Program-made: the position numbers and the translations under genes
Assembly (NCBI RefSeq): GCF_965152275.1
Contig: NW_027439781.1
Location: forward strand, 64,001-85,035
Origin: Natator depressus
Taxonomy: Eukaryota
Length of the DNA: 21,035 nt
Reading direction: 5' to 3'
The notes under the pieces: generated by a model
Seen by the model: the letters and a program-made list of their open reading frames with translations, nothing else
Database searches by the model: none
Told to the model about the DNA's origin: nothing
In this document: positions 276-20,754 of the stretch, piece by piece
Numbering within the stretch: position 1 is the first letter of the stretch
Layout: every line of letters begins with the position of its first letter

Positions 276-1288
276 TGATGCTGACGCAGCCGCCTCTGGG
301 GCGGGGCCGGGGCAGTTCATACGGGGACCCCTGGTCTGGTGCTGAGATGCAGCCGCCTCTGGGGCGGGGCCGGGGCAGTTCATACGGGGACCCCTGGTCC
401 GGTGCTGAGATGCAGCCGCCTCTGGGACGGGGACGGGGCAGTTCATACGGGGACCCCTGGTCCGGTGCTGACGCCGCCGCCTCTGGGGCCGGGCCGGGGC
501 AGTTCATACGGGGACCCCTGGTCCAGTGCTGACGCAGCCGCCTCTGGAGCGGGGCCGGGGCAGTTCATACGGGGACCCCTGGTCCGGTGCTGAGATGCAG
601 CCGCCTCTGGAGCGGGGCCGGGGCAGTTCATACGGGGACCCCTGGTCCGGTGCTGACGCAGCCGCCTCTGGGACGGGGACGGGGCAGTTCATACGGGGAC
701 CCCTGGCCCGGTGCTGACGCAGCCGCCTCTGGGGCGGGGCCGGGGCAGTTCATACGGGGACCCCTGGTCCGGTGCTGACGCAGCCGCCTCTGGGACGGGG
801 ACGGGGCAGTTCATACGGGGACCCCTGGTCTGGTGCTGAGATGCAGCCGCCTCTGGAGCGGGGCCGGGGCAGTTCACAAAGGGACCCCTCGTCCGGTTCT
901 GACGCAGCCACCTCTGGGGTGTGGCCGGGGCAGTTCATACGGGGACCCCTGGTCCGGTGCTGAGATGCAGCCGCCTCTGGAGCGGGGCCGGGGCAGTTCA
1001 TACGGGGACCCCTGGCCCGGTGCTGACGCAGCCGCCTCTGGGACGGGGACGGGGCAGTTCATACGGGGACCCCTGGCCCGGTGCTGATGCAGCCGCCTCT
1101 GGGGCGGGGCCGGGGCAGTTCATACGGGGACCCCTGGTCCGGTGCTGAGATGCAGCCGCCTCTGGGACGGGGACGGGGCAGTTCATACGGGGACCCCTGG
1201 CCCGGTGCTGACGCAGCCGCCTCTGGGACGGGGCAGTTCATACGGGGACCCCTGGCCCGGTGCTGAGATGCAGCCGCCTCTGGGGCAG
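276..1288. repeat. 61-bp minisatellite, about 16-17 head-to-tail copies of CAGCCGCCTCTGGGGCGGGGCCGGGGCAGTTCATACGGGGACCCCTGGTCCGGTGCTGA(GATG/CG). Each unit carries a consensus GC-box, GGGGCGGGGC.
   Basis: Period 61 seen directly (unit starts at 289, 350, 411 and so on). Copies are near-identical, with ACG/GAGATG alternation at the junction. It lies upstream of the MAZ 3' exons and is therefore intronic. Confidence 0.9.
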
Positions 1289-1373
1289 AGCACCGCAGCA
1301 GCAGAGTAGAACAGGCCCCAGGGTTGTGTGGCGGACGCTGACCTGGTGGTTTGTCCTTCTCGCCCCCCCGTAG

Positions 1374-1585
1374 GGTTCACCACAGCGGCCTACCTCCGGG
1401 TGCATGCAGTCAAGGACCACGGACTGTCGGCCCCGCGGGTGGAGCGCTTCCTGTGCAAGCTGTGCGGCGTGCACTGTAAGACCCCGGCACAGCTCAACGG
1501 GCACCTGCAGACGCACGCTGGGGCCGGGGCTGGAGCCGGAGAGGGGCCCGGGGCCGCGCCCGCTGAGGCCCAACCGCTGCGGTGA
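1374..1585 (+). CDS. MAZ: MAZ alternative 3' coding exon, isoform-2 type. It encodes (G)FTTAAYLRVHAVKDHGLSAPRVERFLCKLCGVHCKTPAQLNGHLQTHAGAGAGAGEGPGAAPAEAQPLR*, which includes a C2H2 finger, and ends at TGA 1583-1585.
   Basis: A polypyrimidine tract plus AG acceptor sits at 1351-1373 (ttgtccttctcgcccccccgtag). The exon enters in phase 1 (G|GG TTC). The C2H2 finger CKLCGVHCKTPAQLNGHLQTH and the FTTAAYLR(I/V)HAVKDHG stretch match my recollection of the extra exon specific to human MAZ isoform 2. The canonical MAZ last exon 680 bp downstream, and PRRT2 after that, fit human synteny. Confidence 0.7.
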
Positions 1586-4107: not shown

Positions 4108-4740
4108 TGGGTGAGCCCTGCGGTGCCCCTCACTCCCGACCTGCAGCCCCCCGACCCAGCCCTGCGGTGCCCCTCACTCCCGACCTGCAGCCCCCCGACC
4201 CAGCCCTGCGGTGCCCCTCACTCCCGACCTGCAGCCCCCCGACCCAGCCCCGCGGTGCCCCTCACTCCCGACCTTCAGCCCCCACAGCCCCGCGGTGCCC
4301 CTCACTCCCGACCTGCAGCCCCCCGACCCAGCCCCGCGGTGCCCCTCACTCCCGACCTGCAGCCCCCCGACCCAGCCCCGCGGTGCCCCTCACTCCCGAC
4401 CTTCAGCCCCCACAGCCCCGCGGTGCCCCTCACTCCCGACCTGCAGCCCCCCGACCCAGCCCTGCGGTGCCCCTCACTCCCGACCTGCAGCCCCCCGACC
4501 CAGCCCCGCGGTGCCCCTCACTCCCGACCTGCAGCCCCCACAGCCCCGCGGTGCCCCTCACTCCCGACCTGCAGCCCCCCGACCCAGCCCTGCGGTGCCC
4601 CTCACTCCCGACCTGCAGCCCCCCGACCCAGCCCCGCGGTGCCCCTCACTCCCGACCTGCAGCCCCCCCCCCGACCCAGCCCTGCGGTGCCCCTCACTCC
4701 CCACCTGCAGCCCCCGCACCACCCGAAGCCACCCTCCCCT
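4108..4740. repeat. 44-bp minisatellite, about 14 copies, unit CCTGCGGTGCCCCTCACTCCCGACCTGCAGCCCCCCGACCCAGC. Some units are 38 bp with ..TTCAGCCCCCACAGC.
   Basis: Perfect or near-perfect 44-bp periodicity seen directly. It lies about 100-800 bp upstream of the putative PRRT2 promoter. A related family fills CDIPT intron 5. Confidence 0.9.
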
Positions 4741-5559: not shown

Positions 5560-6123
5560 ATGTCGGACGACACGGAAAAGGACGAGACACCCCCCCTGGG
5601 GCCAACTGAGCTGCAGTCACCCCCCTCGGCCCCAGACGTTCCCCCCTCGGCCCCAGATGCCCCCCCCTCGGCCCCAGACGTTTCCCCACCGGCACGAGTC
5701 ATTTCCTCGTCTGCCCCACCTGCCCCCCCCTCACCAGCAGTGACTGTGATGGTGGAGGATGAGGGGGAGCCCGAGGAGGGGCCCCAACAAAATGGACAGG
5801 CCGTGGGTGTGGGGGGTGCCCCCTACCCCCCCCAAACCTCCCCCCCCACTCTGGCCCCTGCTCGCTCCAAATCGGCCTCCCTGGGCGACTTGGGGGGCAA
5901 GGCCAGCGCTAACGGGGGGCCGCGGGTGCGGGGCAGCCTGGTGGGGTCCCAGGTGCATCTGGCGGGGGCAGGCTCGCCCCGTCCTAGCCTGAGCCACCAG
6001 CCCTCGGGGGCCGAGGGGGGCCCGGAGGCGGAGAAGCCGCGGGATTACATCCTGCTGGCTGCCCTGGCCTGCTTCTGCCCCATCTGGCCCATCAACATCG
6101 TCGCCTTCGTTTACTCCGTCATG
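5560..6123 (+). CDS. PRRT2: PRRT2 main coding exon (exon begins at 5551 after acceptor cttcgcccag, ATG at 5560). It runs [44 protein letters not shown]...[31 protein letters not shown]|, 188 aa, and ends at donor ATG|GTGAGA.
   Basis: The C-terminal part [30 protein letters not shown] aligns with human PRRT2 [30 protein letters not shown] (CD225/dispanin motif). The proline-rich N-terminus, splice-site geometry and phase-0 junction into the next exon all agree. Confidence 0.85.
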
Positions 6124-6129
6124 GTGAGA

Positions 6130-7010
6130 GCCCCCCCAAGCCTCCCACCGCCCCCCAGAGCCCTCCACCTCCCCTCCAGAGCCCCCCCAAGCCCCCCACC
6201 ACCACCCAGAGCCCCCACCGCACTCCCAGCCCACTCCAGAGTCCCCAACATGCCCCCCAGAAACCTGTGCACCCCAGAAACCCACTCTGTTTCCCAGAGC
6301 CCCCCAGAAAACAACTACCCCCCAGAGCCTCCCACTATGCCCCCAGACCACCCCAGAGCTCCCCATGCTCCCTGGAAACCCACCATGCCCCCCAGAAACC
6401 CACCACACCCCAGAGCTCCCCACCATGCCCCCCCATGCCTGCCAGGAACCCAATGTGCCCCCCAGAGCCCCCCTTTTGCACCCCCTCAGAAACACCACAT
6501 CCCAGAGCCCCCTGCTGCAGCCCTCATGCCCCACAGAAACCCACTGCACCCCCAGAGCCCCCCACCATGCCCCCATGTCCCGCGGAAACCCATTGCACCC
6601 CCCCCAGTCCCCCACCTCACCTGCATGCTCCCCAGAAACCCAGCACCCCCCAGAGCCCCCCAACATGCCCCCAGCATCCCCAACTGCACCCCAAAACTGT
6701 CCACGTCACATCAAAACCCCCACTGCACCTTAGTATTCCACATTGTGCCCCCAACCCACCATGTCCCCAAAGCCCCCAACAACCCCCCACTGCACCCCTA
6801 ATAGCCTCTGGGCCCCAGAAAATCCCAAAGAGTCCAATAACCCCACTGCAGTCCCCAGTCCTCCAAAATACTCCACCCACCCCTCCTGCTGTACCCCAAA
6901 CCCACCAGACCCCCCCCCCCGCATGCCCCATATCCCCCACTATTTCCCCAATAGCTCTCGGGGCCACAGATCTCCCCTGCCCTGCCCCTGCCATGCGGGA
7001 GGGGGTCTCG
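6130..7010. repeat. Degenerate C-rich minisatellite with units of about 36-42 bp (CCCCAGAGCCCCCCACCATGCCCCCCAGAAACCCAC...), filling PRRT2 intron 2.
   Basis: Recurring CCAGAGC(C/T)CCCCA..ATGCCCCC..AGAAACCCA modules, more than 20 times. This explains the Pro-rich ORFs 6267-7019 (+) and 5731-6666 (-). Confidence 0.6.
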
Positions 7011-7078
7011 GGGTGGTGATGTGGGGGGGTTATGGGGCCAGGCGCCCCCCCCATCTTACCCCACGTCTCTCCCCACAG

Positions 7079-7219
7079 TCCCGGAACAGCCTGCAGCAGG
7101 GGGATGTGGACGGGGCGCGGCGGCTGGGCCGTGTGGCCAAACTGCTGAGCATGGTGGCCCTGCTCGGGGGCGTCATCATCATCGTCCTCTCGGTCGCCAT
7201 CAACTTCGGCCGTGAGTGA
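7079..7219 (+). CDS. PRRT2: PRRT2 transmembrane / CD225 exon, [44 protein letters not shown](RE*). The stop at 7217-7219 applies if the exon is unspliced. Alternative GT donors lie after 7211 (C|GTGAGT) or 7215 (GA|GTGAGG).
   Basis: Acceptor ctctccccacag at 7067-7078, phase 0. The sequence is almost identical to human [44 protein letters not shown]. Human then continues VYK* in a separate terminal mini-exon. Confidence 0.85.
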
Positions 7220-7224
7220 GGGGC

Positions 7225-8330
7225 GCAGCCCCCGGAACCTCCCGAATTGCCCCCAGGGACCCCAAATCTCCCCCAGAGCCCCCATATGTCCCCAGGACCC
7301 CAAATCACCCTTGGGACCCCGAAATGCCCCCAGGACCCCGATACATCTCCGGGACCCTGATATGTCCCCAGGACCCCCATAGGCCCACCCAGAATCTTGA
7401 CATGCTCCCAGGATGCTGAAACACTCCCGGGACCCCAAAACGCCCCCGGGACCCCCATACACTCCCAGGACCCCAATATAGCCCCAGGATCTCGATGTGC
7501 ACCTGGGAAGCCCATACACTCCTGGGACCCTGATGCACCCCCTGGGACTCCAATTCACCCCCCGTGACTCCCAGGACCCCAATATGCCCTGCATGACCCC
7601 CTGGGACTCCGGTGCGTCCTGCCCAACCCCCAAGACACAACATGCCCCACATGACCTCCCCGGTACCCCAATTTGCTGCACACATTCCCCCTGGGACCAC
7701 AGAAACACCCCCTGGGATCGCAAAACACCCCGCACAGCCACTTGGGACCCTGAAATACCCCCCAGAACCCCAATACACCCTGCACAATCCCCCTGGGACC
7801 CTGATATGCCCTGGGACCCCCAAATTTTGCTGGCATCCCAATACGCCTTGCAAAATCCCCTGAAACACCCTCTGGGACCCTGATTCACCCCACACAACCC
7901 CACAGGACCTTGAAATGCCCCTAGGATCCTGATATGCCCCTGGGACCCCAGTTCATCCCGCATGACCCCTGGACTCCCAAATGTCCCTCAAGACCCCAAA
8001 AAGGCCCACACAATCCCATGGGACCCCAAAACATCCCCAGGACCCCCCAGACCCTGATATGCCCCTGGAATCCTGATACACCCACCCCTATTACCCCAAA
8101 ATTCCCACCCCTCCTGACCCCCTGGGACCACAGTACACTCCCTGGGATCCCATGAAGCACCCAGGATACACCCCACACGATCCCACTGGGACCCTAAAAT
8201 GCCCCACATGACACCACAGACCCTGATAGGCCTCACATGACCCCCTGGACCCAATATATCCCACACAATGCTCTGGAAGCCCCAAATGCCCCTGTGACGG
8301 GATTCCCGGGGTGCAACCTGGGACTGTGGG
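7225..8330. repeat. Degenerate satellite of about 21 bp, about 50 units, consensus roughly CCC(T/A)GGGACCCCAAAATGCCC.
   Basis: Recurring ggaccccaa/ggaccctga..atgcccc motifs at 20-22 bp spacing throughout. The same family resumes at 9355. Confidence 0.8.
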
Positions 8331-9354
8331 ACAGCTGTGCCCCCCTGAACTCTCTCTCCAGCCTGGGCTGTCTCCCACAATGCCCTGCTAGTGACCAGCA
8401 GCGAACCCCTCCAGGTGCTGTGATCACTCACCTGTCCCCGTGGGGGGAATCACACGCCCGGCTGGGGCCACGCATGGGTCACACAGGGAAAGGCACCAGC
8501 CAGATCCTCCCAGCTCAGGAACACGCCGTCTCGTGCTGCTCCTGACCCGTTCTTGAGCAATGTACGTTTGTTAACTGGTTCCCCACGTCACCAGTGGAGA
8601 GTGGACACACACCAGCCTTTGTAACCCGGGCAGATTTTCCAAACCCTGCAGGCAAACTCCGCGGTAAGGATCCCCACGAGAATCGGCTTCTTGATTACAG
8701 ACGATGGGTTTGAAGTGATAGGCAAGTCAGAGTAGTTACCAAAGGACAATAACAGAGACCTGCGCAGGCTAAATTCCCCACCTAGACACTAGGCAATAGC
8801 GGGACGAAGTCGTTTTTCTCACCCTGCTGGATGCTGCAGGTTGGTTGGAGTCTCACACGCCGGCTCGCCCTGTTAGCCTGGGGACCAGTCTCCTCAGCTC
8901 CAGCCTCCTCCCTGCCTCCAGTGTGGGGTGGGGGAGGAGAAAGGAGAAACCATGTGGCCCCTGTCCCCTCTTTTCCACGGTCAGGCCCTGTGCTTGGAGA
9001 GCACGAGTCCAGGCATGTCTGGTCTGGGGGCATTGCTGAGACCCCAGACAAGGCTGAGCAATTCCCCTGCCGGAGAGTCACTGAACTGTAGCTCCCTTGC
9101 TGGACAACGGCTGTTGATGGTTGTTCGACACCCACCTGGGCATCAGTCTGTTCCCTTGCTGGTGTCTCTGGGCAGCTACTATCTGGCCGATTCCCCAACT
9201 CACAACCGTACCACACAGTCTCATAACTCCCCACGCACCGATGACAGACACGTTTCGCTAGAACCTTTCCCCTTGTACCTCACCGGGCCTGTTTTATACG
9301 CAGTACCCCAATCCTATCCAAACGAGGAATAGGGAGGTTACCGGGCACTCCCCT

Positions 9355-9860
9355 GAGGTATGGAGTGCCACACCCCCACCCTGGAACCCCAAAACCCCCC
9401 TGGGACCCAGCGCAACTCCCTGGGACCACAAAATACCCCCTTCGATCCCTATTTGCCACACACAATCCTCTTGGACCCCAAATCTTCCTCAGGGCCCCAG
9501 TACGCCTCAGACAACCCCATGATGCCCCACACAACCTCCCAGGACCACGCTCTGCCCACATGACCCCCCTGGAACCACCCAAACAAGATCTCCAAATGAC
9601 TCCCACAGACCCCAATACACCCCACGTGACTCCCAGGATCCTGAAACATCACCCCCCAAGGTCTTGATACACCAAGCTCTTGATGCACGATTCCCTGCCA
9701 AAAAAGCCCAGCACAACCCCCCCACCCCGGACTTTCATACACCCTGAATGGCCCTCCCCCGATACACCCCACATGACCCCTCCAGGACTTCAACCCTCCC
9801 CCGCCCCCGGACCCTGATATGCCCCAAACGACTTCCCTGGGACCCTGAGATGCCCTGCAT
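9355..9860. repeat. Second block of the 21-bp CCCTGGGACCCCAA satellite.
   Basis: Same motifs as 7225-8330. The two blocks flank the unique segment 8340-9350. Confidence 0.75.
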
Positions 9861-10189
9861 TAACTGTCCTTCTCTTCCCCACCCACACCTCTCCCTGACC
9901 CTATGCTGCCCCCCTGCTCCCCCTCCCTGTTCCCCCTTCTCCTGACCCCCCCATCCCTCCCCAGTGTTCCAGTGAAGACGACTCCGTGCTGTCCCCAGCC
10001 CCCCCAACCCAGGAGCCCCCCTGGCACTGCTCTAATGGGGACCAACCATCCAGGGGGGCCGAGGGGGCGGAGAGGGGGATTACGGCAGCCAACAGAGGGG
10101 TGTGGCCTCCAATCCCCCTTCCGCCTCGGGGACGGAGCCAGAAAAGAAGAACAGGAGAGAATGGAGGAAGAAACCCCTCTCCATCTGTC

Positions 10190-10640
10190 CACCCGTATGC
10201 CTTCATCCGTCTGTCCCGCTGTCCATCCAGCCATTCTGCCATCCAACCATCCGTCCCGCTGTCCATCCGTCCATCCATCCCACTATCCATCTAGCCGTCC
10301 TTCCAGCCATTCTGCCATCCATCCTTGCGTCCGTCCATCCATCCCAGAGTCCTACTGTCCATCTAGCTGTCCTGCAGTCCGTCCAGTCTGCTGTCCGTCC
10401 AGTCGTCTACCGACTTATCCATCCAGTGATGCATCTCTCTGTCCACCCACCCATCCATTCATCTCCCCGGCCATCCATCCGTCTGTCCATTCATCCATCC
10501 ATCTCCCCTGTCACCCATCCATCCAGTGATGTATCTGTCCACCCATCCTGCCGTATGTCCATCCATCCATCCAGCTACCCATCCCTTCATCTGTCCATCC
10601 AGCCTTCTGCCAACTCATCCATCCATCCAGTGACACTCCC
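10190..10640. repeat. Degenerate (CCAT/CCGT)n tetranucleotide microsatellite (ccatccatccgtctgtccatcc...).
   Basis: Seen directly. It explains the Ser/Pro/His-rich ORFs 9903-10529 and 10102-10728. Confidence 0.8.
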
Positions 10641-10721
10641 TCCATTTGGCCTTCTTTCTGTCCCTCCCCTCACTCCCTTTCCTTGCCCTCCCTCCCTTCT
10701 GGCTCATTGCCCCTTCGACAG

Positions 10722-10728
10722 CAAATAA
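10722..10728 (+). CDS. PRRT2: Hypothetical PRRT2 terminal micro-exon, C AAA TAA. With the 7215 donor (phase 2) it gives ...FGR-D-K-stop. The stop codon TAA is embedded in the poly(A) signal AATAAA at 10724-10729.
   Basis: There is a 70-nt polypyrimidine tract plus CAG acceptor at 10640-10721. AATAAA follows immediately after. The human gene also ends with a 3-aa mini-exon ending in K. Frame compatibility depends on choosing the 7215 donor. Confidence 0.2.
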
Positions 10729-12139
10729 AACTCTTTCGATTTCCATGTTTACAAGACAAGAAAAAGCGCGGGCCCGAGACGCCAGAGGGACCCCTCGGCT
10801 GCCAGGGGCACGTTTACATCCCAGCTTGCCCCATCCCAAACGGACGAATGAAACAGAGCCAGCGATGGAAACCCCAACGCCCCTTCTCCCCTGGCTCCCC
10901 GCTGCACGGGGACACGGCCAGCCAGGAACTGGGATTTTGGGGCCCACAGCGGGACACGGAACAAAAGAACAAAGAAGGGGGCAAAAAGGAGAGATGCCGC
11001 TGGGCGCCAATTCCTCGTTGATCCTATTTACAACCCCACATCAGCCAACGGGGGAGATGGGTGGGCGGTGTCTGAATGGGGACGGAAGAGGGAGAAAGGT
11101 GGAGAGGTGGCTGGAGGTTCCCCTCCTGCCCTGCCTCAGGCTAGTCACGTTTCGGGGGGCGAGGAAGGACAGAACGAAACAGGCCAAAGGGAGGAGAGAT
11201 GCCGGCACCTCGTTGGCTGCACCTCCTTGCCCCTCTGGCGGGTCGGGCTAACGAACCTGCGGCAGGGCCGAGGGGGGATGCCGGCGCCGGGGGGCCCGGA
11301 AGAACAGAACAAGAAAGGCCCGACGGAGGAGTGGGGCGGGAACCGGCCCAACGCCAACCCCACCCTGGCGCGCCAAGTGACTTCAGACTGTTACAGACCC
11401 AACCTTGCGGGGACGGGGATGGTTTTGGGGGGCAGGGGAATGCCCCCAGCCAAGCCCCCCCTTTCAGGTCCCATCTTTTGCACGCTATCCACTGGGTAAT
11501 TGGGGGGGGCAGGAGCACAGGGCTGGGGACAGTACAATTGGGGAGGAAATGGGGGGGGGCAGCAGGAATTTTCAGGGGGGGATGAAGGGGCTTGTGTTTT
11601 GATGCTGACATGCCTGTATTATACATGCACGTTTTTCTATACTCTATTGTTGGGGGTGATGGGGGCAGGGGGTCACTCCCAGATGGGCCCTGGAGGTGAC
11701 CAGGGTGGCTTCAATATCGGTGGAGGGGGGCCTGGGACACATTAAAAAAAAGCATTTGTGTAAAGGGAAGGAGGGATTTAAGCCATTTGGGGGGCCAGGG
11801 GGTCGGCTCCCATCTGGCCCCACAGCGGGCAACTGCTGGCTGACAGGGGAGGGGAATAAGTCTCCCCTCCCCCCCTTAAATCCTCCTTACGTGGAGGATG
11901 TGGAATGGCCCCACGTCCATCAATTGGGGGGAGGGGGTTGCATAGTGGGTTTTAACCCCCACGGGAAATAATTCCCAGCCCCCTGTTTTTCCAGAGAACC
12001 CCCAAACCAGGGTAAATCTGAACCCCAGGGCCCAGTGCCCCCTGGCTCCCCGGGGCCTGTTTTGTAGCGATTCGGATGCATGAGAAGCCAATAAACTGAT
12101 GCACGAGAACGGGTCCATGTGTCTGTCTGCAGGAAGCTG

Positions 12140-12590
12140 GGCTCTGGCCGCCCCCCCTCTGTCGGTCCCCCCTGCCCCCTCTAACCCCCTCCTGCAGCCC
12201 CCCAGAGACCCCATCCCACGGTCCCCTGTAACCAGCCCCCACGCCCCCCCCACACCACTGTCCCACGGGTCCCCTCTAACCCCCTCCTGCAGCCCCCCAG
12301 AGACCCCATCCCACAGGTCCCCTGAAACCAGCCCCCCTGCCCTACTCCAGAGAAACCCCCTCCCAGTGCTGGGCCAGGGGTCTCCCTAAATCCAGCCCCT
12401 GCACCCCACTGAGGCCCCATCCAAGTGCCAGGCCCAGGGTTCCCCTATAACCAGTCCTCTCGCCCCACCCCAGAGTAGCTGTGTCCCAGCACCAGACCAG
12501 GGGGTCCCCTGTAACCAGCACCCCTGCCCCAGAGCAGCCGTGTCCTGGCCCCAGACCAGGGGTCCCCATGTACCCAGTGCCCCCCGCCCG
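12140..12590. repeat. Degenerate repeat of about 60 bp (CCCCCAGAGACCCCATCCCACGGTCCCCTGTAACCAGCCCCC... / CCAGACCAGGGGTCCCCTGTAACCAGCACCCCTGCCCCAGAGCAGC).
   Basis: Recurring ccagagaccccatcccac and gtcccct(g/c)taaccag modules, seen directly. Confidence 0.6.
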
Positions 12591-12623
12591 GTTGAAATGA
12601 GAGGCTGGGATTGACGGCCTGCT

Positions 12624-12629
12624 CTTTAT
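12624..12629 (-). terminator. CDIPT: Candidate CDIPT poly(A) signal. AATAAA on the minus strand reads TTTATT on the plus strand.
   Basis: This is the only canonical hexamer downstream of the CDIPT stop (13553) on the minus strand. It implies a 3' UTR of about 0.9 kb that would include the 60-bp GCAAAGCATTGTGGGAAA array. Confidence 0.3.
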
Positions 12630-12879
12630 TGTAGCTGGGACCCCTCCCCACAGCAGGGGTCAGTTGCCCCCCAACCCCCGAGGGGCAGGGTCGAGTCCCA
12701 GCGGAGTCGAACATCCACCACACACATGGAGACGCTTACGCAGGGGAAGCGGCCGTCTGCTGAGGGGCGGGGGGCACGGGCCTGGGCTCCCCTGGGGGGG
12801 GCAGATGAGGAATGACACCCCCCCCCTCGCTGGGGGCAGTGAGGCATCCGCACTCAGGGGAGAGCAGAAGGGGCAAAAA

Positions 12880-13440
12880 AACATGGCCGCCCTCACGCCA
12901 AGCTGGGGGGCACAAAGCCTTGTGGGAAGGAAAAGGAGCCATGGGGGATCTGGAAAGGGGACCCCTCCCCCATAGTTATCCCCCCCCATGGAGTGATTGC
13001 CCCAGGGCAAAGCATCATGGGAAGAGGAGGAGGAACCAATACGGCTCCTGCAGGAGTGCAAAGCATGATGGGCAATGGATCAGGAGCCTTGTGAATAACC
13101 CCAAACACTCACCCTCAAAGCACTGTGGGAAATCGGGGGGCTCAGGTATAAATGCAGCCACTGCCCAAACAAGCACAAAGCATCATGGGAAGCCAAGGGT
13201 GCTGGAATAAACCACAGCCCGCCGGGCACTGTGGGAAACAAGGGGAGGCCGCAGTGACGTCCCCCAGACAATCAACGCCTAGGGCCCACTGCAGAGCATG
13301 GCGGGAAACGGACCCGTGGGATAAATATGGTCCCCGGAGGGCACAGAGAATCGTGGGAGGGGGGACGTAGGCTACACCTTCAGCATGACTTTCACACCCC
13401 CTGCAAAGCATTGTGGGAAACATGTCACGCCCATGCCACA
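12880..13440. repeat. Degenerate tandem repeat of about 55-65 bp with conserved core (G)CAAAGCAT(T/C)(G/A)TGGGAA(A/G), 9-10 copies.
   Basis: The core recurs near 12898, 12952, 12997, 13057, 13120, 13178, 13228, 13292, 13338 and 13408. Three more copies lie at 14575-14770. Confidence 0.75.
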
Positions 13441-13552
13441 AGCACACAACACCAATTGGTGGGTTTCTAACCAATCGAGGGGAGCTTCACCCCGGGGGGG
13501 GGGCTGGTCCCCTCGGGGGGGGTGTCTCTGCCGGCCTCCCCCTCCCCCACCA

Positions 13553-13704
13553 CTACTTCTTCTTGGCCCGCTCGGCGGCGTCCCGGGCGGCCATATTGCA
13601 GGAGGCAGAGACGAGCTGCACGAGGCTGATGAGGGACTTGAGGGCGGCGAGGGGGGTCGAGACCCAGAGGATGAGACGGAAAAGACCCAGGCGTCCGGGG
13701 AGCA
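13553..13704 (-). CDS. CDIPT: CDIPT last coding exon, (V)LPGRLGLFRLILWVSTPLAALKSLISLVQLVSASCNMAARDAAERAKKK*, with stop TAG at 13553-13555.
   Basis: Matches human CDIPT C-terminus ...VGLFRMGLWVTAPIALLKSLISVIHLITAARNMAALDAADRAKKK*. Acceptor cccctcag (minus strand), phase 1. Coordinates are derived from the ORF-track frame. Confidence 0.9.
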
Positions 13705-13744
13705 CTGAGGGGGGAGGGGAGAGAGTTACACAAAACCACACACA

Positions 13745-14345
13745 TGCACGCCAGGCGGTGCCCCCCACTCCCGACCCACAGCCCCCCGCCAGCCCAGCCC
13801 CGCCCCCCCCAGCCCTGCCGGTGCCCCCCACTCCCGACCCACAGCCCCCCGCCAGCCCAGCCCCGCCCCCCCCAGCCCTGCTGGTGCCCCCCACTCCCAA
13901 CCCGCAGCCCCCCGCCAGCCCAGCCCCACCCCCCCAGCTCTGCGGTGCCCCCCACTCCCGACCCGCAGCCCCCCGCCAGCCCAGCCCCACCCCCCCAGCT
14001 CTGCGGTGCCCCCCACTCCCGACCCGCAGCCCCCCGCCAGCCCCCCCAGCTCTGCGGTGCCCCTCACTCCCGACCCGCAGCCCCCTGCTAGCCCAGCCCC
14101 ACCCCCCCAGCTCTGCGGTGCCCCTCACTCCCGACCCGCAGCCCCCCGCCAGCCCAGCCCTGCCGGTGGCCCTCACTCCCGACCCGCAGCCCCCCACCAG
14201 CCCAGCCCTGCCCCCCCAGCTCTGCGGTGCCCCTCACTCCTGACCCACAGCCCCCTGCCAGCCCAGCCCTGCCCCCCCAGCTCTGCCGGTGCCCCTCACT
14301 CCCGACCCACAGCCCCCCGCCAGCCCAGCCCTGCCAGTGCCCCCC
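13745..14345. repeat. 61-63-bp minisatellite, about 10 copies, unit CTGC(C)GGTGCCCC(C/T)CACTCCCGACCCGCAGCCCCCCGCCAGCCCAGCCCCGCCCCCCCAGCC. It is a longer relative of the 44-bp family at 4108-4740 and fills CDIPT intron 5.
   Basis: Periodicity seen directly. The core GGTGCCCCTCACTCCCGACC(T/C)GCAGCCCCCCG is shared with the 44-bp array, in the same + orientation. Confidence 0.85.
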
Positions 14346-14374
14346 ACTCCGACCTGCAGCCCCGATGCGCCCAC

Positions 14375-14456
14375 CTGCAGGCCCCTCGGTGAAGTGCAGC
14401 AGGTACAGCATGCAGAAGAAGAGCTCGTTCCCGGCACACATGGTGAAGAGGACAGG
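14375..14456 (-). CDS. CDIPT: CDIPT exon PVLFTMCAGNELFFCMLYLLHFTEGPA(V), with donor GCAG|GTGGGC on the minus strand.
   Basis: Matches human PALFTLCAGNELFYCLLYLFHFSEGPL(V). Acceptor ccccag, phase 0 in, phase 1 out. Confidence 0.9.
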
Positions 14457-14574
14457 CTGGGGAACGGGAGGAAGCAGAGTCAGGGCGGCCTGTGGAACTC
14501 CCTGCTGCAGGATTGTACTGACAGCCCCATGGGGGCAGAGCAGGGACAGGAGGAGAATTCAAGGTGCTGGGTAA

Positions 14575-14770
14575 GTTAGCAAAGCATTGTGGGACATGGG
14601 GGCAGGCTGGGGGGGGTGTGTCTCTGGCGTAAATATGGCTGCCTCTGAATGCCCCCCCCCCAGCTATCTCCTCCCAGAGCTTGGGGGGAGGACAAAGCAT
14701 TATGGGAAAGGGAGGCAGCGCCCCCCCCCGAAGACTGGCACCCTACACGCTGCAAAGCATTGTGGGAAGC
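14575..14770. repeat. Three further copies of the GCAAAGCATTGTGGGAAA repeat, inside CDIPT intron 4.
   Basis: gcaaagcattgtgggacatggggg (14579), caaagcattatgggaaaggg (14695) and gcaaagcattgtgggaagcac (14751). Confidence 0.7.
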
Positions 14771-14933
14771 ACATCGAGCAGCAAGACCAGACACAGCTGT
14801 GCCCGGCGGCTCTGCAGAGAAGTGGGGCCCCGTGACCCAGGAGTTGAGATGCACCCGCAGGACTCGGCGGGGGGGGGGGGGGGGTCAGGGCAGTGGGGGG
14901 CTGTGAGGTGAGGGGCCCCGGGGCGTCACTCAC

Positions 14934-15015
14934 CCGCGAGGTGTAATACACCCGCAGCACCGGGTTCCCCGTCAGGTCGATGCTCTTATGACTGTCACTG
15001 CCTTGAACCATGGAG
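14934..15015 (-). CDS. CDIPT: CDIPT exon (S)SMVQGSDSHKSIDLTGNPVLRVYYTSR, with donor CGG|GTGAGT.
   Basis: Matches human (S)SVVRGSESHKMIDLSGNPVLRIYYTSR. Acceptor ctctccccag, phase 2 in, phase 0 out. Confidence 0.9.
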
Positions 15016-15092
15016 CTGGGGAGAGACGGGGACATCAGCGGGGGTGGGAGCCAAAGCCCCCCGCCCGCAGGGCGCCCCCGGGCCCCGCCCAC

Positions 15093-15246
15093 CTGTGCAG
15101 GTGCAGCCAGTGGCTGGCGACGTCCAGGCTCATGCTGAGCTGGTAGAGGAGGGCGCGGGGCGGGTCCAGCAGCGCCAGGTTCACCAGCAGGCACATGGTG
15201 GCGCAGCGATCGGTCAGCATGTCCAGCATGGCGCCGAACCGGGTCC
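15093..15246 (-). CDS. CDIPT: CDIPT exon (G)TRFGAMLDMLTDRCATMCLLVNLALLDPPRALLYQLSMSLDVASHWLHLH(S), with donor CACAG|GTGGGC.
   Basis: Matches human TRFGAMLDMLTDRCSTMCLLVNLALLYPGATLFFQISMSLDVASHWLHLHS. Acceptor ccacggcggcag. Confidence 0.9.
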
Positions 15247-15361
15247 CTGCCGCCGTGGGGGGAAGGGTCAGAGACGGAGCCCCGCCCACCCGAGCCCCCC
15301 ACCGCCCAGCCCCCCGGGGGGCAGGAGCACACGGACGCCCCAGTCCCCCGGGGGGCCCTAC

Positions 15362-15496
15362 CTTGGTTGAGGGCGCGGGCCGCGTGGCCGTCGACCGCGT
15401 CCAGCAGGCCGCTGAGCAGGTAGGAGGCGGCGGCCGGGCCAGGGTCGCTCGGCATGAAATAAAAGGCGAGGAAGAGGAGCAGGATCCGGGCGTAGC
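15362..15496 (-). CDS. CDIPT: CDIPT exon (G)YARILLLFLAFYFMPSDPGPAAASYLLSGLLDAVDGHAARALNQ(G), with donor CAAG|GTAGGG.
   Basis: Matches human GYARIVFAIISFYFMPCCPLTASSFYLLSGLLDAFDGHAARALNQG. Acceptor ctgtcgcccgctgcag. Confidence 0.9.
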
Positions 15497-17249
15497 CTGC
15501 AGCGGGCGACAGAGCCACAGTGCTCCTCAGTCCCGACCCGCAGCCCCTCGGCCCGGGGCTCCCTGCCCCGTTACAGCCCCTGCCCCACGCCGCTCCCAAC
15601 CCACGGGGGAGACGCCCAGACTCCTCCGGGGCCGGGGGGGCCGTTGGGAGCATCTGGTGTGAGCCCCCACATCACCCTGGCGCAGACCCGAGAACCCCCG
15701 GCTGGGCTGAGCCATCGCCAGTACTGGAGAATTCCTGTCGGCCCGGAGGGAGCGGTTCTGCCTGGGCCGTATTTACAGCCTCTTTCCAGGCCAGGATCGT
15801 CCTGCCGCTGGGGCACGTCAGACCTTTCTCGGCGGGACTGACGAGCCACAAGGTAACGATCTGTTCCCCACGGAGGTGCTGCCAGGCCGGGCTCCAGTCA
15901 CCCTGGAGCCAGCTCTGCGTTAAGCTGAACAGCTGGAGCCTCTCCCTCGAGGGCAGGTTTCTGATCCTTTCATCCTTCCCGGGGCTCTTCTCTGACCCCT
16001 CCAATGGATCAACATCCTCCTGGAACTGCAGGCACCAGAGCCGGCCCCGGGATCCCAGCCGCGGCCGCCCCAGGACTGAATCCAGAGGGAAAATCCCCCT
16101 GTTTGCACAGCCCAGGATGGCATTGGCCCTTTTGGCCCCAGCATTGCACTGGGCGCTCTTCTTCTGCTGATTAACCCCCGCCCCCCCTTGCTGAGAGTCC
16201 CTGCGTCCCAGGACAGAGCCCCCCAGCCTGTAAGTGCAGCCGGCACTCGTCCTGCCCAGGGACCAGCATTTACATTGAGCTGGGTTAAACCAGTGTCTGC
16301 TTGTGCCCGTTTACCCAGCCATCCAGCTGGCTCTGGACCAGTGACCTCTGCTCTGCGACACTTCCCACCTCCCACCCCCAATGTTCGGGTCAGCTGCAAA
16401 CTTCACTGGTGAGGACGAGACACCAGGTGAAGCCAGCCAGACAAGGCAACGCTGAGACGCTATTGTGAGTCTGGGACCGCTCCCCTCCCTCCTTCCTTCC
16501 TGGGCTGGGGGAGGACAGGGACAGGGTGGGCAGGGGGCTGCATCGCCCTCAGCATGCTCCTGTTCTGATCCAGCCTCATGCTCCAAGGCAGCAGCCTCGC
16601 AGGGGTCAGGAAGGAGGGTTTGCCTCCTCCTCATTCCGCCACTGGAGCCAGGGCACTGCCTGGCTGGCGAGTCAAGCCCTGAGCCAGTCCCCACGGGGCC
16701 AGCCTGGAAAGGTAACCCCAATGCACTAGAGGCAGCGACTCCAAGGGGCCAGAGTTAAACGCATTAAGCCCCAGTGTGGACGCTCTTGCTCAAAATTAAG
16801 TTGGCTTAACTTAATTCACTTGGGAAGCAAAACTGAATTAAGGGCACCGCAGTGCCAACTGAGGGCGTTCACACTGGGGTTTGATGGGGGTCAGCGCCTC
16901 CACTTCTGCTTGACAGCGACAGTGAATTCAGATGGACTCCCCCAGCTGGCCCTGTGCAGACAAACCCCACATCTGAAGGCAAGCTGGATGGTGCAAGGGA
17001 TGCCCTGGGTACAGCAGCGCGTGGGGGCCCATCTCAGCCCCCACCAGATGGGAGAAACCCAAAGGGGCGGTCGGTAGGCATAATGGGGACCGGCTGCCTG
17101 TGCCTGGTTGCTGGAGAAGGGGCACCTGGGCACTGCGGGGGACCCGGTCGAGCTGGATCTGTCCATGCTGGAGGGGATGGTGCAGGGTGGCAGAGTTTGA
17201 GCTGGGTGTGACACCCTGGCACCCCAATATTCGCAACTGTCATGTAATG

Positions 17250-18050
17250 AGGACGTGTTCGGTACAAAGTGCATCTTGTGAGGGGTCATTCTAAAAGTCT
17301 TGATCTGCAAGACAGTCGTATCTCGTTGGAGTGTCTGCGCAGTCGTCGTGTGGGAAGTGATAGGTTTGGCTATTTGTGTGAGTTACTGAAACATGTCGTG
17401 AGGTTGAAAACACCCACAAGTAGCCTTTCCGGTACAACCGTAAAAAGGCCAAACACTGTTAATAGCTTTCTGAGGAAATGCACCAAAGCACCAGGGATTA
17501 CCCCAGGGACTGTGTGCAACAGAAACCTCTCAGAGATAGCTCTGCACAATGGGAACTGTCTGACCCCAGGGCACAGCAAAAGAGCTTTCCAGGAAGTGGG
17601 GAGAAGATAGAAAAAGGGGGAAATGACATCATGTATCACCCTCCCTCTCTCTACAACTCCACACCTGGAAACACCCGAGGGGCAAGGACTGAACGGGGGA
17701 AGGGATGGTCCCAGGCTAAGGGATTTCTAGCCTGTGTATGAAAACCTGGGACACCCAAACTGCAAAGACAAGGTAGCTTGTGCCTTAAGAATTTGCCAGC
17801 TTGTTTATTGCTCAGGGTGAGAATTTGCTAATTCATCTCCTACCTGTCTAGTGCATTAAACTCAGTTTGCGTTTTTGTTTACTTGCTAGGTGACCTGCTT
17901 TGTTCTGTTCGCTCTCACTTTAATATCTTAAAATCTATCCTTTTGTAGCTAATAAACTTATGTCATGTTTTAATCCAAACCAGTATGCGTTTGACTAGGG
18001 TGCGTGGGGAAAAATCTCAGCATGGTTACCACAAGTGTGAATGGTTCTCA
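17250..18050. mobile_element. AT-richer (about 45% GC), non-satellite block in CDIPT intron 1 with LTR-like features: an internal AATAAA (gtagctaataaacttatg, about 17945) and TG...CA-type ends. Possibly a solo LTR or other transposable-element remnant.
   Basis: Composition is sharply different from the surrounding 65-70% GC. There is no coding potential and no tandem structure. The family is not identified. Confidence 0.25.
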
Positions 18051-18512
18051 TCCCATTGAGGGTGAGGGGGACTGGGTGTTACACCCATATACTGGCGAGA
18101 TTTGACCAGAGCAGGATGGTACCGCTCTGGGGTCCTAGGCTGGGAGGCTGCTGGTTAGAGAGCCTGCATGTGGCTGCAGCTGGGTGTGTCCCGACCTGTG
18201 CAAATGCTGGTGAAGGTGCAGACTGGGGGGCTTTGCAGCTTGTCACAGCAGCACACTGTGAGAGGGAGCCCAGGCTGGTGGGTCAGGGGCTCAGTGGCAC
18301 CCCCAGTTCCAGCTGGCACCCCAGGGGGGAACCCATCATACCAGGGACCTGCCACGAGAGCTCTGGGCCACTGGTTCCTGGGATGGCTCCGACCTGGCCC
18401 CAGGGCAGGGGACAGGGCAGCTCGGGGGACATGAAAGGGACTAGGGGCTGTCCCCTGGGGGACACCAACTCTGACCCAGCTCTGAGGATCCCCCCAGGCT
18501 CCCCTCACTCAC

Positions 18513-18558
18513 CAATGAGGTTCGGCACAAAGAGGAAGATGTTTTCGTCCTTCATCAT
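18513..18558 (-). CDS. CDIPT: CDIPT first coding exon, MMKDENIFLFVPNLI(G), with donor ATTG|GTGAGT. The start is ATG at 18556-18558 (a second in-frame ATG lies at 18553-18555). An acceptor-like cacccacag lies immediately 5', suggesting a separate 5'-UTR exon further upstream.
   Basis: Matches human MPDENIFLFVPNLIG. Phase 1 out joins the GC TAC... exon at 15496 across an intron 1 of about 3 kb. Confidence 0.85.
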
Positions 18559-19379: not shown

Positions 19380-19875
19380 TTCCCAGGATCCCCTGGGGCC
19401 GGCCTGGCCCGTTTCCCAGAATGCCCCGGGGCCGGCCTGGCCCGTTTCCCACAATCCCCCAGGCCCATCTTGGCCCATTTCCCACAATCCCCCGGGGCCG
19501 GCCTCGCCCGTTTCCCACAATCCCCCAGGCCTGTCCTGGTCCGTTTCCCACAATCCCCTGGGAACGGCTTGGCCTGTTTCCCAGAATGCCCGGCGGCCGG
19601 CCTGTCCTGTTTCCCAGAATCCCCCAGGCCCGTCCTGGCCCATTTCCAGAATGCCCCGGGGCTGGCCTGGCCCATTTCCCAGAATGCCCGGGGCCTGCCT
19701 GGCCCATTTCCCACAATCCCCCAGGCTGTCCGGGCCCATTTCCCACAATTCCCCGGGGCCAGCCTGGCCCGTTTCCCAGAATGCCCCGGGCCCAGCCTGG
19801 CCCGTTTCCCACAATCCCCCAGGTCCGGACTGGCCCGTTTCCCAGAATGCCCTGGGCCCGGCCTGGCTGACCTCC
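19380..19875. repeat. 33-bp minisatellite, about 15 copies, unit GGCCCGTTTCCCAGAATGCCCCGGGGCCGGCCT with CACAATCCCCCAGGCC variants.
   Basis: Periodicity seen directly. It explains ORFs 19281-20093 (+), 19110-19916 (-) and 19150-20001 (-). Confidence 0.85.
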
Positions 19876-20089: not shown

Positions 20090-20227
20090 CTAGGCGGTGG
20101 CCTTGGCCACGGTCTCTGATTGGTCGGTGTCGCTGTCTGACTTCTCGCAGGAGGGCCGGTCCCGACGGGTCACTTTGCTCAGGAATTTGCCAGGCCCCCC
20201 TTGGCGAGAGGGGCAGTGGATCAGGGG
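20090..20227 (-). CDS. Terminal coding exon of an unidentified minus-strand gene, PLIHCPSRQGGPGKFLSKVTRRDRPSCEKSDSDTDQSETVAKATA*, with stop TAG at 20090-20092.
   Basis: Acceptor ctgccccacag (minus strand) at 20228-20238, phase 0. The reading frame is non-repetitive and of ordinary composition, running to a stop. It joins in frame to the upstream exon at 20532-20615. By human synteny the gene 5' of CDIPT on this strand would be SEZ6L2, but I cannot confirm identity from memory. Confidence 0.45.
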   Translation of the reverse strand, partial: PLIHCPSRQGGPGKFLSKVTRRDRPSCEKSDSDTDQSETVAKATA

Positions 20228-20531
20228 CTGTGGGGCAGATGAGGGGAAGGGGTGAGAACAGAGAGCCCCCAGAGGGAACTGCCCCCCCCAAACACACACC
20301 AAGGCCTGGCCCGCCCACTGCCCACTAGCCCCTCCCACTGCCCTCTAGCTCCTCCTCCCCTTGCTCACAGCCCCTCCCACATGCCCTATACCCCTCCCAC
20401 TTCCCCATTAACCCCGCCCACTTTTGCACTATCCCTGCCCATGGCTGTCTAGCCCCTCCCACGTCCTTTTAGCCCCTCCCATGGCCCCCCTTGCCCTCTC
20501 TCCTCTGCAGTGTGGGGCTGCGGGGGGTTAC

Positions 20532-20615
20532 CTGGATGGTGCTGCGCTCCTGCTCTGAGACCAGGGGGACAGACCCTCCAGGCCGCCAGACGGGAGCGCC
20601 GGGGGAGCGGCGCCG
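20532..20615 (-). CDS. Penultimate exon of the same unidentified gene, RRRSPGAPVWRPGGSVPLVSEQERSTIQ, with donor CCAG|GTAACC. The 5' boundary is uncertain; an acceptor tttgtgacccag is possible, or the exon may extend upstream as ...MMGGAFVTQ.
   Basis: Clean GT donor, in-frame phase-0 junction to the terminal exon, non-repetitive sequence. Confidence 0.4.
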
Positions 20616-20754
20616 CTGGGTCACAAAGGCCCCCCCCATCATGGTCCTCCAGCCGCACGGCCTCCACCTGGGGGGACATGTCAGCCAGATGGGGCAGCGG
20701 GGGCGGGGGGCAGAACTGACGGGCAGGTGGGGGCTGAGTCGGGGGAGGAGGTTA

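Follow-up and report, generated by a model that had tools for sequence, protein, structure and literature searches.

The lack of MVP between PRRT2 and CDIPT in Natator depressus is very likely an ordinary difference in gene order between sauropsids and the human map, with MVP not lost and the interval not collapsed. In turtles, PRRT2 and CDIPT are direct convergent (tail-to-tail) neighbours, and probably likewise in the gecko. MVP of the green turtle (Chelonia mydas) has KIF22 and TLCD3B as its neighbours and is found on the far 5' side of CDIPT; in mammals, a PAGR1-MVP block separates PRRT2 from CDIPT. MVP was expected in this interval because the mammalian map served as reference. The window is the whole stretch of N. 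depressus DNA analysed (21,035 nt), and its features are given in Table 1.

Table 1. Positions in the window of exons, untranslated regions and intervening DNA from MAZ to CDIPT
Feature	Position	Strand	Remarks
Presumed MAZ C-terminal zinc-finger exon	1349..1522	+	Translation ...HAVKDHGLSAPRVERFLCKLCGVHCKTPAQLNGHLQTH; upstream neighbour of PRRT2
PRRT2 first coding exon	5560..6123	+	ATG ... YSVM, 188 codons, donor GTGAGA; read from sequence
PRRT2 CD225-domain exon	7079..7211	+	...AINFG plus 1 nt; donor GTGAGT at 7212
Predicted last PRRT2 intron	7212..9964	+	Donor 7212, acceptor AG 9963-9964; mostly degenerate 19-20-bp C-rich minisatellite
Predicted PRRT2 terminal coding mini-exon	9965..9975	+	TG TTC CAG TGA; protein end ...AINFG-LFQ-stop
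Putative PRRT2 3'UTR	9976..10756	+	Contains (TCCA)n tract 10202-10640 and AATAAA block 10714-10756
Spacer between convergent PRRT2 and CDIPT	10757..12624		Mostly unique; 48-59-bp repeats 12165-12580; collinear with C. mydas
Probable CDIPT 3'UTR	12625..13552	-	Minus-strand AATAAA 12625-12630 (poly(A) signal scan); extent inferred
CDIPT coding region	13553..18558	-	Six exons; stop codon 13553-13555

Coding content of the interval

The original observation that coding sequence of MVP and PAGR1 is absent from 7220-13552 was borne out, as Pfam, tblastn and phmmer searches were all empty and their controls positive. Six-frame Pfam scans of 7000-13800, with X-masked frames, found CD225 alone, with no MVP domains and no PAXIP1_C; exons for the Vault repeats (PF01505, PF17794-6) or the MVP shoulder (PF11978) were not found in that range. 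The C. mydas MVP protein had no tblastn match in the window at E ≤ 10; as a positive control, it matched exons along its full length in two MVP loci. The window was likewise without matches to MVP of frog, emu or gecko.

Human PAGR1 reached at best E of about 20 against the window (tblastn and phmmer --max), and the conserved C-terminal PAXIP1_C region (motifs PTEFDFDDEP... and REARLDKVLSDMKRH...) was not detected in the window. The human PAGR1 query sequence is supported by its strong matches to gar PAGR1 (E 2e-13 with tblastn, 3e-17 with phmmer); one exon of C. mydas was matched as well (E of about 1e-8). Thus, tblastn of MVP and PAGR1 against 7220-13552 found no exons of either gene.

Gene models and repeats

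From the exon, repeat and poly(A) evidence combined, the 6.3-kb interval would consist of a repeat-filled last PRRT2 intron, an 11-nt terminal coding exon, the PRRT2 3'UTR, a spacer of about 1.9 kb and probably the CDIPT 3'UTR.

The repeats reported in the interval (a minisatellite, a degenerate (TCCA)n tract given as (CCAT)n, and other minisatellites, here the 48-59-bp repeats) were all located. The degenerate minisatellite occupied about 7234-8290 and 9380-9860 (TRF; 19-nt spacing, repeat families D1-D14), and its period was mostly 19-20 bp (TRF and repeat families), not the 21 bp first given for it. The (TCCA)n tract was delimited by TRF (repeat family D2). The description of the interval as made up of repeats and low-complexity sequence was too broad, with about half of it unique sequence as estimated from the repeat spans.

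The spacer was 92-96% identical to C. mydas apart from a 256-bp indel (11731-11986), and Pfam, Rfam, MVP and PAGR1 searches of it gave no signal. Against Rfam, the entire window had three weak matches at E ≤ 1; their scores were all far below gathering scores, and they were taken as chance.

PRRT2 had been wrongly placed as ending at about 7219. The match to CD225 (Pfam, E 7e-8) lies in an exon ending just before that position, and direct reading of the sequence put the end of the exon at 7211, with a phase 1 donor. PRRT2 would then continue into the conserved terminal mini-exon at 9965-9975 and its 3'UTR. Upstream of the mini-exon there is a long pyrimidine tract followed by AG, and the 19-mer CCCCAGTGTTCCAGTGAAG at the terminal exon was identical in the window, C. 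mydas and gecko. The gecko annotated CDS terminates exactly at the TGA of the mini-exon; the PRRT2 protein with the mini-exon has 235 aa, vs. 234 aa in gecko. At sequence level, this predicted LFQ-stop mini-exon is conserved from turtle to gecko.

Downstream of the mini-exon, the putative PRRT2 3'UTR would extend to about 10.75 kb. It contains an AATAAA signal at 10724, within a 44-nt block (10714-10756) that was 97.7% identical to gecko DNA located 3' of the PRRT2-like CD225 gene. The C. mydas PRRT2 gene model (305 aa) prolongs the CDS to a TAG at window positions 10292-10294; as the more likely last exon, the conserved mini-exon was preferred to that of this model. The sea-turtle PRRT2 model thus probably should end at the conserved LFQ-stop mini-exon, not inside the (TCCA)n tract. 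The C. mydas locus also carries the PRRT2 first coding exon.

On the other side of the interval, the CDIPT 3' end fell at 13553 on the minus strand, as had been reported. A search with CDIPT placed the window among turtles. The spliced product was identical to N. depressus CDIPT at 216/216 residues and differed from other sea turtles at 3-7 residues. The region between the minus-strand AATAAA and the CDIPT stop codon is probably the CDIPT 3'UTR, and a motif scan found seven ZNF143-site-like motifs in it (12917-13419; repeat family D17). Upstream of PRRT2, the zinc-finger exon translation reading ...HAVKDHGLSAPRVERFLCKLCGVHCKTPAQLNGHLQTH self-matched at its own coordinates; this exon is taken as MAZ from the protein and the expected gene order.

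Collapse of the minisatellites by the assembler, with MVP and PAGR1 truly between PRRT2 and CDIPT and dropped from the sequence, had been offered as one explanation and is extremely improbable. The interval is full of tandem repeats, and the Natator region is apparently on a short 85-kb contig, which suggests a subtelomeric, GC-rich region that is hard to assemble. However, the interval was 96% collinear with that of an independent, chromosome-level C. mydas assembly and near-equal to it in size (6341 bp in the window vs. 6169 bp in C. mydas, with one 256-bp indel), and a complete MVP is present in that assembly, in another gene context about 43 kb away. Emu and gecko also have no MVP within 10 kb of CDIPT, the window was without N gaps, and the Natator genome was assembled from PacBio HiFi and Hi-C data (PMC12448945).

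Position of MVP

In C. mydas, MVP (CM026903.2:822785-833507) and CDIPT (876718-881824) are on the same chromosome. The 849-aa MVP sits between KIF22 and TLCD3B, its neighbours by domain being a kinesin (Kinesin, Microtub_bd and HHH_3, i.e., KIF22) and a TRAM_LAG1_CLN8 protein (TLCD3B). CDIPT and the CD225 protein (PRRT2) are adjacent called genes in that assembly, with none in between. Natator MVP would lie outside the PRRT2-CDIPT interval as in C. mydas, since the Natator records of MVP (XP_074797730) and CDIPT (XP_074797740) both give a contig of 85,035 bp and the C. mydas layout serves as guide.

A search with human MVP had no turtle or bird among the best 120 matches listed, which briefly suggested loss of MVP; this was dropped once a search with tuatara MVP retrieved turtle and bird MVP clusters. 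Natator, Chelonia, Caretta and Lepidochelys were among the 25 members of the turtle cluster. An intact MVP of 849 aa, carrying the full set of Vault and MVP_shoulder domains, was present in Natator, Chelonia, Lepidochelys olivacea and a number of freshwater turtles and tortoises. For Caretta, the entries shown in the cluster had 469 and 944 aa. Chicken and turkey MVP sequences exist according to one paper, and a search of the literature on MVP loss in birds or turtles, or on 16p11.2 synteny in chicken, returned nothing relevant.

The order KIF22-MVP-TLCD3B in emu was identical to that of C. mydas. The gene downstream of emu CDIPT was a fibrinogen-C-domain (Fibrinogen_C) gene, not PRRT2, so the claim of PRRT2-CDIPT adjacency covers turtle and, as probable, gecko. 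In gecko, MVP adjoins TLCD3B, about 57 kb from CDIPT, and the gene after CDIPT is a convergent CD225 gene. This gene is probably PRRT2, to judge from its conserved terminal exon and poly(A) block; no match to the C-terminus of turtle PRRT2 was found in the gecko CD225 locus, which contains the 3' end of the gene only. In platypus, MVP is directly followed by CDIPT, as in human. In gar, PAGR1 comes next after MVP and is encoded on the other strand. Xenopus MVP look-ups returned a transcript contig or no record, with no gene context.

PAGR1 in sauropsids

With the human query, complete PAGR1 was not found in loci of about 30 kb around turtle, terrapin, emu and gecko MVP (about 10 kb on each side of MVP), and the most conserved C-terminal PAGR1 exon was not detected in these MVP-flanking loci. 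One PAGR1-like exon (59% identity) was found in C. mydas, 6.4 kb upstream of MVP (CM026903.2, near 839.9 kb) and within the range called for KIF22. In chicken, PAGR1 is annotated and expressed (Gene 107051071; PMC10023945), and therefore PAGR1 was not lost across sauropsids in general.

It is very unlikely that this turtle lineage has truly lost MVP, PAGR1 or both, or retains them as pseudogenes. For PAGR1 only, loss would fit the absence of a full gene near MVP in turtle, terrapin, emu and gecko, and the single PAGR1-like exon of C. mydas; that search, however, covered about 10 kb on either side of MVP with the human protein only, and the chicken gene also argues against loss. As regards MVP, the suggestion of gene loss failed on the intact proteins of Natator, Chelonia, Lepidochelys olivacea and other turtles, and on the position of C. 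mydas MVP about 43 kb from CDIPT.

Gene order and its polarity

The window and C. mydas both have PRRT2 and CDIPT as convergent neighbours, and gecko has a convergent CD225 gene with the shared terminal exon after CDIPT. MVP was flanked by KIF22 and TLCD3B in C. mydas and emu, and on the TLCD3B side only in gecko. The mammalian-type order, with PAGR1 and MVP between PRRT2 and CDIPT and MVP tail-to-tail with CDIPT, was found neither in the window nor in C. mydas; platypus, which served as control, showed MVP-CDIPT.

A move of MVP and PAGR1 out of an ancestral PRRT2-PAGR1-MVP-CDIPT order that is confined to sea turtles or to turtles is highly improbable. MVP adjoins CDIPT in both human and platypus, and if this is ancestral for amniotes, some sauropsid lineage changed. 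Against a turtle-specific event, KIF22-MVP-TLCD3B is common to green turtle and emu, MVP-TLCD3B is found in gecko as well, and the convergent adjacency of CDIPT and the CD225 gene is common to turtle and gecko. Of the lineage-specific relocation first proposed, the part that stands is that MVP is elsewhere than in human, and the part that does not is its restriction to one lineage.

The preferred reading remains an ordinary sauropsid difference from the human map. The order is common to green turtle, emu and, partly, gecko, so any change would be at least as old as the sauropsid stem, or else the mammalian order would be derived. It is possible, though doubtful, that the mammalian order arose on the mammalian stem, with PRRT2/CDIPT convergence and KIF22-MVP-TLCD3B ancestral for amniotes, and that turtle PAGR1 is a remnant exon antisense inside KIF22.

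These results remove a false lead on loss of the vault protein in a reptile and carry little biological weight. The human 16p11.2 map is an unsafe template for judging the presence of genes in sauropsids. Micro-rearrangements in the 16p11.2-orthologous block (MVP/PAGR1, KIF22 and the MAZ-PRRT2-CDIPT unit) could provide rare genomic markers of amniote phylogeny if their polarity were resolved.

Comparison with known loci

Two loci of the C. mydas rCheMyd1 assembly were compared, CM026903.2:866,718-891,824 (CDIPT, PRRT2) and 812,785-843,507 (KIF22, MVP, TLCD3B). The genes of the window had the same order and orientation in C. mydas, and the whole window aligned at 87-96% identity. The collinear PRRT2-CDIPT interval, the 19-nt terminal-exon motif and the positions of the ZNF143-like motifs were also shared. 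The two species differed by 3 residues in the CDIPT protein, by the indel in the spacer and by the C. mydas PRRT2 model, which runs into the (TCCA)n tract past the conserved mini-exon stop.

The gecko used was Sphaerodactylus townsendi (locus CM037628.2, about 30.56-30.66 Mb). It shared with the window the CDIPT/CD225 convergence, the mini-exon TG TTC CAG TGA, the 44-nt AATAAA block and a (TCCA)n-like tract in the corresponding 3' region. The gap between the CDIPT and CD225 coding regions was larger in gecko (about 9 kb), and the gene upstream of its MVP was a 465-aa C2H2 zinc-finger gene (possibly MAZ; the locus contains its 5' part only), not KIF22. A zinc-finger gene instead of KIF22 beside MVP would point to another local inversion compared with turtles.

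The order in human 16p11.2 BP4-BP5 is KIF22, MAZ, PRRT2, PAGR1, MVP, CDIPT, SEZ6L2 ... TLCD3B (PMC11354020). Human and turtle both keep these neighbours in one small block, where MAZ and PRRT2 form a tandem pair and CDIPT is convergent, with KIF22, MVP and TLCD3B close by. In mammals, PRRT2 and CDIPT are separated by PAGR1 and MVP; in turtle they are not, and MVP is flanked by KIF22 and TLCD3B.

Gene content of the interval

No N gaps interrupted the GC-rich vertebrate DNA of the window, including the satellite blocks where assembly gaps had been a concern. Turtles were the top database matches of spliced CDIPT, and among cluster members the CDIPT encoded here was identical to that of Natator depressus (216/216), with 3-7 residue differences in other sea turtles, which makes this species, the flatback turtle, the most likely source of the window. 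The 3' end of the CDIPT coding sequence was confirmed at 13553 (Table).

Table. Features of the window and of related loci. Positions without a prefix are those of the window; L001, L003, L004 and L007 are the Chelonia mydas CDIPT/PRRT2 and KIF22-MVP-TLCD3B loci, the emu MVP locus and the spotted gar MVP locus.
Feature	Position	Strand	Remarks
61-bp array	279-1286		16 copies; upstream of MAZ exon
MAZ-like C-terminal zinc-finger exon	1349-1522	+	by translation
44-bp-period array	4114-4715		upstream of PRRT2
PRRT2 first coding exon	5560-6123	+	ATG at 5560
PRRT2 CD225 exon	7079-7211	+	GTGAGT donor after codon base 1
Degenerate minisatellite	~7234-8290, 9380-9860		19-20-bp period
PRRT2 terminal mini-exon	9965-9975	+	TG TTC CAG TGA; long pyrimidine tract and AG precede
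Degenerate (TCCA)n tract	10202-10640
44-nt block TTCGACAGCAAATAAAACTCTTTCGATTTCCATGTTTACAAGA	10714-10756		includes AATAAA
Indel, 256 bp	11731-11986		absent in C. mydas
Repeats of 48-59 bp	12165-12580
AATAAA	12625-12630	-
TTCCCACAATGC, seven copies	12917-13419	-	putative CDIPT 3'UTR; ~50-115-bp spacing
CDIPT, six exons	18558 down to 13553	-	stop codon 13553-13555
61-bp-period array	13755-14363		last CDIPT intron
TTCCCACAATGC, three copies	14584-14768	-	CDIPT intron
TTCCCACAATGC, fourteen copies	19380-19867	+	33-bp tandem array (~15 units) upstream of CDIPT
Blocks shared with gecko	20114-20285, 20529-20676		upstream of CDIPT
C. mydas MVP	CM026903.2:822,785-833,507
C. mydas CDIPT	CM026903.2:876,718-881,824
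C. mydas PAGR1-like exon	L003:3539-3634 (CM026903.2 about 839.9 kb)	+	RPHIPTQFDFDTEPLMPKSSLL...
C. mydas PRRT2 model, last exon	L001 18171-18400		window about 10089-10294
Emu repeat related to TTCCCACAATGC repeat	L004 about 38.1-38.9 kb		MVP intron
Gar PAGR1	L007 53985-58233	-	unnamed gene, 264 aa

MVP and PAGR1 were absent from 7220-13552, as the original prediction had held. A six-frame Pfam scan of 7000-13800 gave no Vault, MVP_shoulder or PAXIP1_C match, its sole match being the CD225 of the PRRT2 exon, an internal positive control. At E <= 10, tblastn with green-turtle (C. mydas) MVP matched neither the window nor the orthologous locus of green turtle, and in two MVP loci of turtles, the positive control, it recovered exons along the full length of the protein; MVP of frog, emu and gecko (Sphaerodactylus townsendi) had no match in the window. 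Human PAGR1, a query sequence backed by its strong gar matches, had no significant window match with tblastn or phmmer --max. No window match exceeded any Rfam gathering score.

An assembly collapse across repeats, offered earlier as one explanation of the missing genes, was rejected, since the interval was reproduced in the independent C. mydas assembly. The C. mydas CDIPT protein mapped to CM026903.2, and in the 25-kb locus L001 CDIPT and a CD225 protein were adjacent called genes with none between. The entire window was collinear with L001 (87-96% identity); PRRT2 donor to CDIPT stop measured 6341 bp in the window vs 6169 bp in C. mydas, and two collinear alignments covered 96% of the interval (92-96% identity). 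The single 256-bp indel, present here, had no second copy among the fetched sequences. Both genomes were independently assembled from long reads; the Natator genome described in PMC12448945 combined PacBio HiFi with Hi-C.

PRRT2 3' end and make-up of the interval

PRRT2 did not end at about 7219, as had been proposed; the 'stop' at 7217-7219 was read-through into the intron, beyond the donor that closes the CD225 exon. The terminal mini-exon gives the protein terminus ...AINFG-LFQ-stop. Human PRRT2 ends similarly, with a few codons (VYK-stop) in its last mini-exon. The 19-mer CCCCAGTGTTCCAGTGAAG was identical across the window, C. mydas and gecko, and the annotated gecko CDS (234 aa) terminated exactly at the mini-exon TGA. 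In C. mydas, the 305-aa PRRT2 model left the conserved LFQ-stop mini-exon unused and continued to a TAG equivalent to 10292-10294, inside the (TCCA)n tract, its terminus ...SIRPSIPLSI being translated tract; this ending was judged less likely, and the last exon is probably mis-modelled.

The 44-nt block (97.7% identity, turtle vs gecko) probably marks where PRRT2 is polyadenylated, or else a regulatory site. Taken as the polyadenylation region, it would give a putative PRRT2 3'UTR of ~0.78 kb enclosing the (TCCA)n tract, of which gecko has a similar one. The conservation of the block was unusually strong for a 3'UTR end.

The earlier repeat description was roughly right in its minisatellite and (TCCA)n/(CCAT)n tract, and wrong in the minisatellite period, given as 21 bp. 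Unique sequence made up about half of the interval, by our estimate from repeat spans. Judged by the minus-strand AATAAA, the CDIPT 3'UTR would be ~0.9 kb. The interval would then run from the last PRRT2 intron (2.75 kb) through the PRRT2 terminal exon and 3'UTR (~0.8 kb) and a ~1.9-kb spacer to what is probably the CDIPT 3'UTR. Overall, the interval is explained by the 3' portions of two genes that converge on it.

Repeats and conserved blocks around the two genes

The 12-mer TTCCCACAATGC, which resembles a ZNF143/Staf binding-site core, occurred 27 times in the window with <=2 mismatches vs about 2 expected, and exact copies stood at homologous C. mydas positions. The arrays upstream of PRRT2 and in the last CDIPT intron had the common core unit GCGGTGCCCCTCACTCCCGACC(T/C)GCAGCCCCCC; the 61-bp array before the MAZ exon was separate. 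The two blocks upstream of CDIPT had 74-77% nucleotide identity with gecko in several reading frames; their gecko counterparts lay inside an annotated 314-aa gene without Pfam domain, and no gene was called at the C. mydas counterpart.

MVP and PAGR1 elsewhere

A search seeded with tuatara MVP yielded a cluster of 25 turtle MVP proteins, with 849 aa in Natator depressus, C. mydas and Lepidochelys olivacea, entries of 469 and 944 aa in Caretta caretta, and Mauremys, Gopherus and Malaclemys also represented. Loss of MVP in the turtle lineage, which the original prediction had allowed, was rejected, since the gene is intact in green turtle, on the CDIPT chromosome and ~43 kb beyond the CDIPT 5' side. 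Upstream of it and divergent lay a kinesin (Kinesin, Microtub_bd and HHH_3 domains), read as KIF22, and downstream and convergent a TRAM_LAG1_CLN8 protein, read as TLCD3B. Natator MVP and CDIPT were each on record on an 85,035-bp contig, therefore almost certainly a shared one, on which the C. mydas span of 67 kb would fit; the two flatback genes very probably share these 85 kb.

In C. mydas, a single match resembling a PAGR1 exon (59% identity, E about 1e-8) preceded MVP by 6.4 kb; it shared the MVP strand, fell within the opposite-strand KIF22 call, and was the only sauropsid PAGR1 trace in the loci searched. Neither the most conserved C-terminal PAGR1 exon nor any further one was detected in the 30-kb C. 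mydas MVP locus. The match may mark a nested gene or a remnant, or further exons may have escaped detection. PAGR1 is annotated and expressed in chicken, and general sauropsid loss is therefore unlikely.

Comparison of gene order

Gene order was directly readable from public annotations. In gar, PAGR1 lay just downstream of MVP on the opposite strand, tail-to-tail, whereas in human the two genes share a strand and PAGR1 is the upstream one. Emu had KIF22-MVP-TLCD3B, matching green turtle, and gecko had a C2H2 zinc-finger gene, MVP and TLCD3B in order, with MVP ~57 kb from CDIPT, itself followed by a convergent CD225 gene; a relocation, if any, was not turtle-specific. In Xenopus laevis (L011/L012) and emu (L009), the gene immediately preceding CDIPT, in the same orientation, encoded a TAOK2-like kinase, an adjacency absent in human; within 10 kb of CDIPT, MVP was not found in either species, nor was the kinase seen in green turtle. 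Gene order in the block has clearly changed repeatedly. The absence of MVP and PAGR1 is real but ordinary, the expectation having come from comparing a turtle with the human map (KIF22, MAZ, PRRT2, PAGR1, MVP, CDIPT, SEZ6L2 ... TLCD3B; PMC11354020). Platypus, with convergent CDIPT directly after MVP, had the mammalian order, and among the species sampled here PAGR1-MVP stood between PRRT2 and CDIPT in mammals only.
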